Assembly: GCA_963795855.1 (NCBI GenBank)
Contig: CAWCIZ010000003.1
Span: forward strand, 512,001-576,000
Length of the DNA stretch: 64,000 nt
Reading direction: 5' to 3'
Source: Vulcanimicrobiota bacterium
Lineage (GTDB): Bacteria > Vulcanimicrobiota > Vulcanimicrobiia > Vulcanimicrobiales > Vulcanimicrobiaceae
Shown: positions 36,019 to 39,105 of the stretch, in pieces
Layout of the letters: the number at the start of each line of letters is the position of its first letter
Position numbering within the stretch: position 1 is the stretch's first letter
Program-made: the position numbers and the translations under genes
The notes under the pieces: generated by a model
Told to the model about the DNA's origin: nothing
The model's database searches: none
What the model saw: the letters and a program-made list of their open reading frames with translations, nothing else

Positions 36019-36276
36019 CCGGCGAACAGCCTCCCCGGGGGCGTCCAAAGGGCATTATCCCCTCACGGCACGGGTAACCGAAATCTCGAAAATGCGCTAG
36101 TGTTATCAGATCAGAGCCTTAATCTTTTCGTTCATGTTCGCGGGGCATAAACAAAGCGTGAAGTTTCGGCTTTTACCAAACCGTGACCGTTGACATTACG
36201 CCCTAAAGCCGGATGATTAGATTCCGACGTATAGCATGGATGCCAAGGATGGCCCACTGGTAGTCTGGAGAGCAGC

Positions 36277-36471
36277 ATGGAGAATTGCCTTGTGTGTGGC
36301 AAGCCAGTTCGAGTCGAGTACCCTGGGTTGCCGCGCGCCCGTGCGCTTTGTGATGATGTTTGCAAGCGAATCTGGGCTGCTCAAACCGGCAAAGAATACA
36401 TCAGTATGCAAGAATACGCCAGCAGGGTGAACGCGGCGACGAAACCTATCCACCCTACTAGCGCGTCGTAA
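36277..36471 (+). CDS. Small zinc-finger protein (CxxC...CxxxC, YacG/FCS-like), IS passenger
   Basis: MENCLVCGKPV...LCDDVCKRIW; GGAGAG upstream; convergent with the DUF3892 gene. Confidence 0.55.
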   Translation: MENCLVCGKPVRVEYPGLPRARALCDDVCKRIWAAQTGKEYISMQEYASRVNAATKPIHPTSAS

Positions 36472-36494
36472 GTCTACCTTAGCGGGTTATCGAT

Positions 36495-36764
36495 TTAGTA
36501 AACAGGCAGACTTAGCAGATTGTCAGCAACGGAATCATTCGGTAGTGTCCGTATGTACGGACGCCGGATGGTCCCGCAAACGACGACTACACGAGTCCGG
36601 CGATCGCCGTCCACCGTGTAGAGTTCGTTTCCGCCGTTGATAAACGCGATGATGGCCGATAGAGTCATCGTTAGCGTTACGCCGAAGACGGTTCGACATT
36701 CCACGTCGGTGATTATGGAGTGGGGACCCTCTAGGTACACTCCTATTGCTTCCAGAGATTGCAT
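36495..36764 (-). CDS. DUF3892-like protein, IS passenger (89 aa)
   Basis: AAGGAGGT RBS; C-terminal PYIRTLPNDSVADNLLSLP signature. Confidence 0.7.
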   Translation of the reverse strand: MQSLEAIGVYLEGPHSIITDVECRTVFGVTLTMTLSAIIAFINGGNELYTVDGDRRTRVVVVCGTIRRPYIRTLPNDSVADNLLSLPVY

Positions 36765-37035
36765 TGAGCAAGACCTCCTTGTGACGTGTCGCACCCGGCG
36801 CTTGGGATGCGGGCGGAGTGCCCGCGCCAAGTCACCAGCGTTCCCACCGAGGCAGGAGCGCTGTCGGGGTACCGGCTTCCCCCGATTTGCCGTCCGCTGA
36901 AGCACTCATCACCTGCGGAAATCTCATAGTACCTCTGGACTGGTGCGGTCGGTAGCCCATTCTCCGAAGCCTTAGCTTTCGCTAAACGAAGCGGGCCCTT
37001 TTGCGTCACCGTCCGGTTCGTGATAATGTTGGAGC

Positions 37036-37126
37036 GGAGCCGGGGAATCTTATTTCATGCGCGGTACCAGCGCGCACCCATGGTTTCTAAGGCCAGGTCG
37101 GACACTTGTCACGATTCGGCGGCTCC
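37036..37126 (+). ncRNA. Candidate cloverleaf-like structured RNA A
   Basis: Closing stem GGAGCCG/CGGCTCC with three internal arms; GATAAT upstream; terminator-like hairpin at 37137-37168. Confidence 0.4.
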
Positions 37127-37194
37127 AAAATGAATCGGGCTCATCTTTTAAGATGGGCCTGTTCTTTACGCGGCATTCTCCGTTTCGGTTGCGG

Positions 37195-37626
37195 CTATTG
37201 TGGCGGGCGGAACGTCGCCGATCCACCGATACGTTCGAGGGGCAATTTTTTGACCATGTGGCGTTGGGAGAGGTTGTAGCACGAGACATCAGTCGCTGAA
37301 AGCGGACTGTCAGCCCGCGTTACTGCGTTCATTGCCTGAGCGCGCTTCCATAATTCCTTTACGTGCATCGGGGTGCCGTGCGCTTCGTACAGAATGCGCG
37401 CGATGGCGCTCATTAATGAAGGCCCGCCCTTCGACCGTGGCGGAACGACATTCGGCGGTTCGATGCCTAACGGTAGCGGCTCGCCATTACTTGCATTCAG
37501 CGTGAGCCAGCGTTCGTCGGCGCGTAGCATGTCGAGCAGTACTTCTCTCTGCCTATCAAGGTTGGCGAGCGTTTCTCGAACTTGTGCTAGCCGATCGCGG
37601 ACTGCTTGCTCGGTTAACATGGTCAT
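37195..37626 (-). CDS. Coiled-coil plus winged-HTH (HARE-HTH-like) protein, IS passenger
   Basis: N-terminal heptads; SLMSAIARILYEAHGTPMHVKELW helix pattern. Confidence 0.65.
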   Translation of the reverse strand: MTMLTEQAVRDRLAQVRETLANLDRQREVLLDMLRADERWLTLNASNGEPLPLGIEPPNVVPPRSKGGPSLMSAIARILYEAHGTPMHVKELWKRAQAMNAVTRADSPLSATDVSCYNLSQRHMVKKLPLERIGGSATFRPPQ

Positions 37627-37652
37627 TTCGGTTCCCTTTTGCTATAATGGCA

Positions 37653-37770
37653 ATGGCGACGCCGGGGCCTCGATCCCCGGAGTTACGGGATTTCAGTCCC
37701 GCTTCTGTCCGAACCGCCGCCATCGGGGGCCCTGGGTCTGTCACCAAACTTCCCCAGGCCCCCTTACTTT
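37653..37770 (+). ncRNA. Candidate structured antisense RNA B
   Basis: TGcTATAAT at 37640-37648; ATGGCG/CGCCAT encloses two hairpins; followed by a GC hairpin and a T-rich tail. Confidence 0.45.
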
Positions 37771-37853
37771 ATCATAACGAGTCTGCTCGCATCATAGGGG
37801 GTAGGCCCTATGTAGGACCTAATAGCTCCATAAAGTTTAGGTAAAAGAGGCGT

Positions 37854-38021
37854 ATGGACAAAACTAAGGGCGTGGCACCATCCGGCGAACGCCCATATGA
37901 ACGGGTTGACTTTCTACGCGACTTGTCTAAGGCGTCTAAGAAACTAGCTTCCGGGGATGATGCTTCGCTGGAAAGTGACGCGCAAGAAACTCCTGGGAAA
38001 TCTGACCGCAAAGAATCGTGA
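37854..38021 (+). CDS. Small ORF antisense to the transposase 3' end (55 aa)
   Basis: AAGAGG RBS; MDKTKG...YERVDFLRDLSKASKK... Confidence 0.4.
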   Translation: MDKTKGVAPSGERPYERVDFLRDLSKASKKLASGDDASLESDAQETPGKSDRKES

Positions 38022-38943
38022 ACATCGGCTTGCCATCCTCGCGATGGTTGTAGCGGAAGCAATACTCGTCTAAGTAACCCTGAATGTGCTTGCGCGAGAT
38101 ATGCTTGTACACGCCGCGCACACTGCCACGGAAATGCGACCAGAAGCCCTCGATCGTGTTCGTCGAAACGCCGTCCGCATCGACGTAAACGCCGTCACTG
38201 TGCTTCACTAGTCTGTGAACGTAACCCCAATGCTTGAGGGGAACGTATTGCGGGGCTTCGTCTGTATGAATTTCACTACCGGGCTTGACTCGCTGCTTGA
38301 TGGGCTGCGTCAACTCGAAGAATCCGCGCCGTTCTACGGGATAAGCCGCAATACGGCCACCACGCTCGACTAAACCCGCGATTACGATCTTGCCGGTTTC
38401 GGGCCCAACAACTTGCGGAAAACGCGCACGAGCCCGACGGTTCATGCGATTAACCTTCGGCCCGAAATACGTTTCATCGGCTTCTACTATCTTGTCGCCG
38501 CCGAGATCGTGAACGTCCTCTAGTAGCATCTTGCGAATGAGGTTGAACATGCGCCACGCAGTTTTATACGTAACGCCGGTTTCGCGCATGAGCTGCATGG
38601 CGGAAATGCCACAACGGGTCGCGCTCATCAAGTAGATCGCGTGGAACCACGTTTTGAGGCTTGTCTTGGACTTGTGGAAGATCGTGCCGGCCGTCGGATG
38701 CGTATGCGTTCCGCAGTAATCGCAGGTCCAGACCTTGGGGCGATTCTTGAGCTGGTGATGGGGGCGGACCTCGCCGCATTGCAAACAGTGGATATACAGT
38801 GCGTCCGCGTCCTCGGGGGCCCATAGCGGCTGCGGATAGAGAGACTTGACCAACCAGCGCATACACGCGATATCGTCCGGAAACTCGGATTCGAACTGCT
38901 TGAACGTGTACTTGCTGTTCTTGGGTAGGTTTAGGCTCGGCAT
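37936..38943 (-). CDS. IS1595-family DDE transposase
   Basis: Zn ribbon CLQC...CDYC, AGTIFH, YKTAWRM, VEADETY, IHTDE, TNTIEGFWS, YLDEYCFRYN. Confidence 0.95.
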   Translation of the reverse strand: MPSLNLPKNSKYTFKQFESEFPDDIACMRWLVKSLYPQPLWAPEDADALYIHCLQCGEVRPHHQLKNRPKVWTCDYCGTHTHPTAGTIFHKSKTSLKTWFHAIYLMSATRCGISAMQLMRETGVTYKTAWRMFNLIRKMLLEDVHDLGGDKIVEADETYFGPKVNRMNRRARARFPQVVGPETGKIVIAGLVERGGRIAAYPVERRGFFELTQPIKQRVKPGSEIHTDEAPQYVPLKHWGYVHRLVKHSDGVYVDADGVSTNTIEGFWSHFRGSVRGVYKHISRKHIQGYLDEYCFRYNHREDGKPMFTILCGQISQEFLARHFPAKHHPRKLVS

Positions 38944-39014
38944 AGGGCTCGCCTCCACCTACAGCGTATCATGGGTTACACGTGCGGTCAAGGGATAATG
39001 ACCCGTCCAAAGAA

Positions 39015-39078
39015 CTTGCAGTCTCCACCGGAGTCTGCTAAGATTCCATCGCTGGCACTCTATTGCTGAGAGTGCCAA
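39015..39078 (+). promoter_or_regulatory. groESL sigma-70 promoter with tandem CIRCE (HrcA operators)
   Basis: TTGCAG-N17-TAAGAT with extended TG; CTGGCACTC-N9-GAGTGCCAA at 39052-39078; degenerate copy at 39015-39041. Confidence 0.88.
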
Positions 39079-39105
39079 TCCCTGACAAATTTTTTGGAGG
39101 TTTAC

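Follow-up and report, generated by a model that had tools for sequence, protein, structure and literature searches.

The window, a 64,000-nt stretch of DNA, carries an IS1595-family transposon whose cargo includes a winged helix-turn-helix (wHTH) gene and, upstream of it, a structured region with promoter-like motifs on both strands. The features are given below.

36050-39003, no strand assigned: IS1595-family transposon with passenger genes, delimited by inverted ends and a target duplication; 2954 nt
36495-36770, minus strand: DUF3892 gene, cargo (PF13031, E 3.6e-7)
37020-37170, no strand assigned: second structured unit, 'RNA A', laid out like the cloverleaf unit (hairpin, multibranch fold, reverse -10)
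37195-37626, minus strand: gene for a 143-aa wHTH (HARE-HTH-like) protein (PF05066, E 7.6e-4, below the cut-off)
37640-37648, plus strand: extended -10 TGcTATAAT (TGCTATAAT), predicted antisense promoter, recurring in five of six loci
37648-37724, minus strand: tRNA-like cloverleaf, from the minimum free energy fold, pair probabilities, a relaxed ARAGORN score and six homologues with covariation
37654-37770, plus strand: predicted cis-antisense RNA of ~117 nt, its ends placed by the -10 and a T-rich tail
37725-37770, plus strand: G+C hairpin with a TTACTTT tail, a likely antisense terminator and, on the minus strand, the 5' leader hairpin
37766-37796, minus strand: candidate -10 boxes of a gene-strand promoter (TATGAT at 37776-37771 and 37796-37791)
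37793-37812, no strand assigned: inverted repeat CATAGGG/CCCTATG over the upstream TATGAT box
37936-38958, minus strand: IS1595/ISXO2-like DDE transposase, 340 aa (PF12762, E 1.8e-32)

The terminal inverted repeats are 30 nt long (36050-36079 and 38974-39003), and an 8-nt target duplication, CGTCCAAA, flanks them (36042-36049 and 39004-39011). The element resembles other IS1595-family transposons in its PF12762 transposase (DDE_Tnp_IS1595), terminal repeats, 8-nt duplication and variable cargo, and it can be classed as an IS1595 passenger transposon on these features. The nearest named relatives of the transposase are Eremiobacterota records, a tentative pointer to the phylum of the host. A search of the element's own genome revealed one copy in the assembly, and its G+C content lies below that of the flanks. 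On the minus strand the cargo comprises the structured region, the 143-aa gene, RNA A and the DUF3892 gene (E 3.6e-7 for the PF13031 match). Out of 176 loci, 92 distinct elements could be delimited by their ends and duplication. Their cargo varies and includes ARAGORN tRNAs in 5 of the 92; two of the three closest relatives, L036 and L037, are tRNA-bearing. In the part of the literature that was covered, no non-coding IS1595 cargo of such kind was found. The tRNAs of the relatives lie at L036:3699-3771 and L037:2514-2595 and also in L043, L090 and L136. The L037 tRNA has a long variable arm and a GCC anticodon, and a like body with GUC occurs in L237. An antisense extended -10 stands within 62 nt in two of the six tRNAs inside IS1595 relatives. 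Two IS1595 elements are inserted in the same orientation before groES, one in the window (39004-39080) and one at L198:1380-1450 (genome G211). Only a few bases separate each insertion from a TTGCAG -35-like word downstream of it, with transposases that are 66% identical and different cargo; an insertion preference for the groES promoter region is possible.

RNA A has a terminator on the plus strand (37136-37161) and a multibranch fold (37029-37126) that presents a CUUAGAA loop on the minus strand, with GATAAT (plus) directly before it. It folds better on the plus strand (z -3.22, against -2.02 on the minus strand). Homology between RNA A and the serine-body tRNAs of other loci, described below, was looked for and no tie was found. 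A third multi-hairpin region (36785-36900, minus strand), upstream of the DUF3892 gene, folds no better than shuffles (z -1.05). On the plus strand, a 64-aa cysteine-rich ORF (36277-36471) follows a 10/12 promoter match and a 55-aa ORF (37854-38021) faces the transposase end; small ORFs of similar make-up, as judged by eye, face the transposase elsewhere. Two overlapping plus-strand ORFs (37373-37777 and 37584-37844) had no Pfam match and were not taken as genes.

The 143-aa protein is predicted to consist of an N-terminal 40-residue helix followed by a winged helix-turn-helix (model pLDDT 87). A fold search with this model returned weak winged-helix matches only, for example Zalpha domains (E 0.12-0.5), and single-protein word searches yielded nothing beyond the protein itself. 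With the protein as query, HMMER gave 120 hits including itself; in the homologues, the PF05066 match exceeds the cut-off or comes near it. A profile built from 41 of the 120 hits detected the family in 10 of 401 genomes of the phylum (11 loci, the element's own genome included) and in 6 of 301 in a second class. For transcription of the gene, the first-pass annotation had pointed to the two TATGAT boxes. Both are present, and neither has a good -35. A further candidate, TG-a-TAAAGT (37774-37766, minus strand), also has a weak -35. Three homologous loci (G356, G280 and G212) carry an extended -10 at a like place on the gene strand, before the hairpin, and the window's is weaker than theirs. 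The CATAGGG/CCCTATG repeat can fold as a hairpin and is a candidate operator.

The structured region had been described as a plus-strand RNA in which an ATGGCG/CGCCAT stem encloses two hairpins. All of the motifs named in that description are present at their positions, and the stem does enclose the two hairpins. Read on the minus strand, the two-hairpin junction gains a third arm and forms a cloverleaf, and the A-C mismatches of the plus fold become G-U pairs. The multibranch part reaches -36.6 kcal/mol on the minus strand compared to -28.7 on the plus strand (z -2.84 and -1.19, respectively). The acceptor pairs 37721-37715 with 37661-37655 (7 bp, G-U at pair 5) and can gain three more pairs, for a helix of 10 bp, after which comes GCCA (37651-37648). 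The D arm has 3 bp (37713-37703, loop GGACA), the anticodon arm 6 bp (37702-37685) with the 6-nt loop CUGAAA at 37696-37691, and the T arm 6 bp (37680-37662, loop AUCGAGG). The unit has the four arms of a canonical tRNA (acceptor, D, anticodon and T). It departs from the canonical form, which has a 7/5 branch, a 7-nt anticodon loop, U8/A14, U54 and a score above 29 bits: here the branch is 7/6 or 10/6, the loop 6 nt and position 54 an A. The relaxed ARAGORN score is 94.25, under the cut-off of 100, and is reached by 5 of 500 element shuffles and by ~40 non-tRNA sites of the genome. A cloverleaf descriptor, written after the unit had been seen, recovers 41 of 45 host tRNAs plus 11 other sites, the window unit among them, and the Rfam tRNA model RF00005 left the unit unscored even at E 10. 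By itself, the evidence of fold, ARAGORN and descriptor in the window is suggestive and no more.

Comparison with other genomes adds to this evidence. In six loci of one phylum, a cloverleaf lies on the gene strand just upstream of the same wHTH family. These are the window and loci in G212, G356, G310, G280 and G175, which make up the whole membership; the G212, G356, G310 and G280 units were first picked by eye upstream of wHTH homologues. A covariance model made from the window alone placed the G280, G310 and G212 units fourth, fifth and eighth of 27 hits in 90 kb, all on the gene strand at E 0.15-0.54, none significant alone, and it missed the G356 unit. A four-sequence model found the held-out G356 unit (E 0.43, seventh of seven hits in 800 kb). 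Over 150 genomes it detected a new unit in G175 (E 0.0066), which directly precedes a member of the same wHTH protein family (E 2.8e-9); the four remaining new hits proved to be tRNAs or RNAs resembling them. Two members, G356 and G175, were thus recovered by models trained without them. After the members, what the models score best in the genomes are tRNAs and tRNA-like RNAs. Models R1 and R2, run over transposase-selected IS1595 loci, returned the G280 unit only. Model R3, over 240 more genomes, returned 35 places (7 tRNAs and 28 instances of another tRNA-like RNA) and no new member. Two DNA pattern searches had 0 hits and two gave 53 and 120 loci (100 of the 120 scored), again with no new member. 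BLASTN-type RNA searches of the own genome, the 401 genomes, phages and plasmids gave short chance matches only, and locus scans by alignment either lacked a conserved stretch to work with or found no match. One locus, in G715 (L263), was sorted as a non-member. Another, L116, the single hit of a further DNA pattern search, holds a different two-hairpin element (E 0.009-0.28 with the models) and was left uncounted because it had been selected by pattern. It lies on a viral contig (L116:1440-1590) and has a similar layout, with a divergent gene start, an extended -10 and a closed two-hairpin stem.

The six units share 39-59% pairwise identity. Compensatory changes, proposed earlier as a check on the structure, were found: both sides have changed in 19 of 25 pairs and 94% of cells pair, counts that lean toward the structure because the six-unit alignment was fitted to it. 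UGAA is kept in the anticodon-place loop of all six units, while position 37 varies (A, C, G). T-loop-like loops (UUCGAG, AUCGAG, UUCAAC) are readable on the gene strand only, and a reduced D arm and a long acceptor are common to the units. The window loop seems to have lost one base, since in the five homologues the loop has 7 nt and GAA takes the position of the anticodon; either a mutation or an assembly error in the A run accounts for the missing base. A tRNA with a GAA anticodon is the likely ancestor of the cloverleaf. The role of decoding adaptor has probably been lost, because the acceptor ends are not conserved, CCA is encoded in only two of the six units, the D arm is reduced and the window loop has 6 nt.

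The setting of the unit is an IS1595 element in the window, G356 and G280, an IS1-type transposase adjoins the G175 unit, and the G212 and G310 loci end at contig breaks. Five of the 11 phylum wHTH loci and all six second-class loci are without a cloverleaf. The unit might be a decaying passenger, that is, the remnant of a captured tRNA-Phe gene, with the reverse -10 and the terminator as an insulator against read-through into the cargo. This is quite unlikely in our judgement. The ARAGORN tRNAs in the cargo of IS1595 relatives, the base lost from the window loop and the presence of an own tRNA-Phe in the host genome would fit it, as would an antisense -10 in two loci that have no cloverleaf. 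However, the stems have been kept through both-side changes at the low identity given above, and the short D arm, the long acceptor and the place before one gene family are shared across IS1595 and IS1-type settings, a pattern that random decay would not produce.

On the opposite strand, the extended -10 is preceded at 17 nt by a -35-like TGGTCA (37620-37625; 10/12 promoter matches), which overlies the wHTH start codons. In the window, this promoter is a stronger consensus match than the gene-strand one. The predicted RNA is complementary to the cloverleaf plus the leader hairpin. We searched for TGnTAnnnT opposite the gene strand and at most 70 nt from the start codon, a test chosen after the loci had been seen. 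The motif occurs in five of the six cloverleaf loci, 7 of the 11 phylum loci and none of the six second-class loci. In the host controls it occurs in 16 of 939 upstream windows, in 4 of 115 windows of low G+C and in 1 of 45 tRNA trailers, and the count in the loci was reached in 0 of 20000 shuffles. The G175 locus has the cloverleaf and lacks a full antisense -10. Conversely, the -10 is kept in two of the five phylum loci that lack a cloverleaf, so the antisense promoter needs no cloverleaf.

The GGGGGC...GCCCCC hairpin spans 37725-37763 and is followed by TTACTTT. It is absent from the list of the terminator scan; its loop is longer than the scan allows. The T-rich tails after the leader hairpins are of uneven quality across loci. 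The wobble pairs of the six leader hairpins comprise no gene-strand G-U and nine antisense G-U pairs (P 0.002, strand-blind). The window's hairpin adds none to this 9:0 count and has a gene-strand U-G pair under its GUGA loop. In the cloverleaves there are 11 gene-strand and 6 antisense wobble pairs (P 0.17, strand-blind); the ratio becomes 11:2 (P 0.011) only if four pairs are removed that belong to helices other than the cloverleaf arms. The bias differs between hairpin and cloverleaf (Fisher P 0.002). These counts suggest that the hairpin has been selected as an antisense terminator and, less firmly, that the cloverleaf has been selected as a gene-strand fold. The cis-antisense RNA of ~115 nt that the first-pass annotation proposed is thus supported as a prediction by the extended -10 in five of six loci and the 9:0 wobble count.

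That annotation had also taken the multibranch fold as the plus RNA's own structure and likened it to phage C4 antisense RNA. On that view the functional, structured molecule would be the plus-strand RNA, either as a C4-like RNA or as a trans-acting sRNA, and the cloverleaf would be its mirror image. The plus fold does beat chance (z -2.58, 3 of 200 shuffles; z -2.36 for the predicted 117-nt RNA), and the stronger plus promoter and a predicted start at the closing stem in four of six loci (by eye) would suit this reading. By unit, the fold z-score is better on the gene strand in two, tied in one and better on the antisense strand in three, hence equal or better for the antisense strand in four of six, and UUCA is as invariant as UGAA. 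Against this, the G-U pairs inside the arms and the T-loop-like loops belong to the gene strand and the models' next hits are tRNAs, so that the conserved fold is better described as a tRNA-like cloverleaf. C4 RNA, which RNase P excises, is encoded on the strand of its targets, where it pairs with short, separate sites. A search for target sites of this type gave only one-mismatch matches of 7-8 nt, none in the leader or the ribosome-binding site, and the loops have no second target elsewhere in the leader. The unit and C4 are alike in being multibranch RNAs in mobile-element leaders (C4 and c4-a1b1, RF01695; PMC2864571), but Rfam scans of the window, the element and the units gave no RF01695/c4-a1b1 match. 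The proposed Rfam check for C4, DUF3800 motifs and abiF gave no window hit at the gathering score (best E 5.2), the element scan found no family, and the six units at E 1 produced only a chance CRISPR-DR24 hit. We consider the plus-strand reading improbable. The feature is real and conserved and was misassigned in part: we read it as a tRNA-like leader with a short D arm that likely has an antisense partner.

From the observed layout, conservation and strand bias we infer two transcripts, their pairing and their functions as follows. Our leading explanation, held with about even confidence, is a cassette in which a tRNA-shaped leader RNA precedes the wHTH gene and is likely silenced by the ~117-nt antisense RNA. 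Face-to-face promoters would drive a leader-plus-gene transcript and the antisense RNA. The former would carry the hairpin first, then the cloverleaf and the wHTH gene, followed in some loci by a second irregular tRNA. The antisense RNA would run from the 3' end of the cloverleaf to the upstream hairpin. The invariant loops, UGAA and UUCA, both of which fit YUNR, may be the first to touch. The YUNR motif is present in the loops of six of six antisense and five of six sense strands, and a YUNR U-turn speeds sense-antisense pairing (PMC6562991). Loop contact would proceed to a full duplex and then to decay. The antisense promoter overlaps the start codon, and polymerase there might also hinder transcription of the sense strand. 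Together with duplex formation, this interference would keep the unit and the gene low; the cloverleaf would be both the target of the antisense RNA and an element for processing or recognition. YUNR pairing offers a second reason, beside an anticodon role, for the conservation of the loop.

The cloverleaf might also act as a protein-sensing leader, in which a tRNA mimic is bound or cut by PheRS, an anticodon nuclease or the wHTH protein and switches the gene, with the antisense RNA secondary. In favour of this, the anticodon-like loop with GAA is invariant and lies immediately before the ribosome-binding site, and the weak fold matches of the wHTH model include nucleic-acid-binding winged helices such as Zalpha. 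Those matches are not significant, however, position 37 varies, and no pairing is predicted between the cloverleaf and the ribosome-binding site. We regard this as very improbable.

Downstream of the wHTH gene, on the same strand, Rfam tRNAs (48.9 and 46.5 bits) are present in G212 and G175, two of the five loci that have downstream sequence. They combine a serine-type body with a UAG (Leu) anticodon, and their place after the gene supports a tRNA origin of the cassette. An antisense -10 follows the serine-body tRNA in one of the two loci. The tRNAs of this type, at L231:521-649 and L262:899-995 (both minus strand), have G73 and a long V arm and directly follow the wHTH gene; the V arm of the L231 tRNA has a ~60-nt insertion, and an antisense extended -10 follows it.

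Irregular tRNAs of soil bacteria, among them allo-tRNAs and polycistrons with several such units in one transcript, were described near transposon and toxin-antitoxin genes by Mukai et al. in 2017 (PMC5389517; reviewed in PMC7609411). Their role has been unexplained since 2017, and some are lethal on expression. In the available parts of these sources, the G-1 'tRNA1' rows have the T loop UUCGAGG and the 'tRNA2 Leu' rows the acceptor GGCGRCG/CGYCGCCA (PMC5389517). The cassette shares with them T-loop and acceptor sequences (window T loop AUCGAGG), a mobile, toxin-antitoxin-rich setting and, in G212 and G175, serine-body tRNAs with a Leu anticodon. It differs from them in an anticodon fixed as GAA where theirs vary, in a D arm of ~3 bp and in its site in a protein-gene leader. 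An allo-tRNA is defined by a 12-bp branch as 8/4 or 9/3, a long V arm and a long D stem with a tetraloop (PMC5389517). The window-type unit has none of these: across the units the variable region is short, the D stem has 3 bp and the T stem 5-7 bp. In the available portions, no row of the Mukai supplement resembles the window unit by eye, and neither PMC5389517 nor PMC7609411 mentions an antisense partner.

These tRNAs raise the question of toxicity. In a type VIII-like pair of RNA toxin and RNA antitoxin, the tRNA mimic or the serine-body tRNA would impair protein synthesis, either through misreading or through sequestration of synthetases or EF-Tu; the antidote would be the antisense RNA, and loss of the element would be made costly. 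SdsR/RyeA, a type VIII toxin-antitoxin system, likewise consists of two RNAs from opposite strands of one locus (PMC8610362). It has no sequence or fold match to the pair predicted here, in which one partner is tRNA-shaped and is carried by an insertion sequence. In the work of Mukai et al., tRNAs of serine type with Leu anticodons killed E. coli (PMC5389517), and the long-arm UAG tRNAs of the G212 and G175 cassettes are of this kind. In the window unit a closed helix is followed by a terminal GCCA, in the G212 unit a G-1-type stem by a terminal CCA, and GNAT and SocA/Panacea genes are neighbours of the G310 and G280 units. Nevertheless, CCA and the acceptor end are not conserved, the window loop is only 6 nt long, the reach of the antisense RNA would be limited to the first unit, an antisense -10 follows the serine-body tRNA in just one of two loci, and several of the irregular tRNAs tested by Mukai et al. 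were translationally inactive (PMC5389517). On balance this reading is unlikely. We give as little credence to an 'anti-tRNA' addiction module, in which at least two insertion-sequence families would spread a tRNA-mimic toxin, excised from a gene leader, together with a dedicated antisense RNA that neutralises it via the anticodon loop. If true, it would be the first toxin-antitoxin pair of a tRNA and its complement, and would explain how mistranslating tRNAs ride mobile DNA without host death.

Counter-transcript control systems include ColE1 RNA I and pCF10 Anti-Q. The cis-antisense systems hok/Sok, pIP501 RNAII/RNAIII and bsrE/SR5 use U-turn loops (PMC6562991). The silenced leader that we favour resembles such systems in its predicted short RNA with its own promoter and a likely terminator, in full complementarity to a structured leader and in YUNR on both strands; the opposite-strand promoter over the target is seen as a sequence motif in five of six loci. 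It differs in that the target is a tRNA-derived cloverleaf and the gene codes for a wHTH protein rather than for a toxin peptide or a replication protein. A literature search, mainly outside subscription papers, found no case of an insertion sequence that carries a tRNA-like RNA together with a cis-antisense partner of that RNA. The feature joins two known kinds, irregular tRNAs and cis-antisense control, and the cassette offers a concrete form of control for a tRNA-like unit, with a predicted antisense promoter at its 3' end and a likely terminator at its 5' end. The family of short-D-arm cloverleaves escapes Rfam and default ARAGORN.

The other tRNA-like RNA, which accounted for the 28 of 35 R3 places, is conserved in many genomes of the phylum (L442-L457, L460-L470 and L472-L476). 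L442 had no Rfam hit above the cut-off, and a motif search did not find this RNA in G000. Its acceptor is of the G3-U70 type and its T arm is normal. Next comes a segment complementary to the 5' half of the RNA, and some genomes have several copies.
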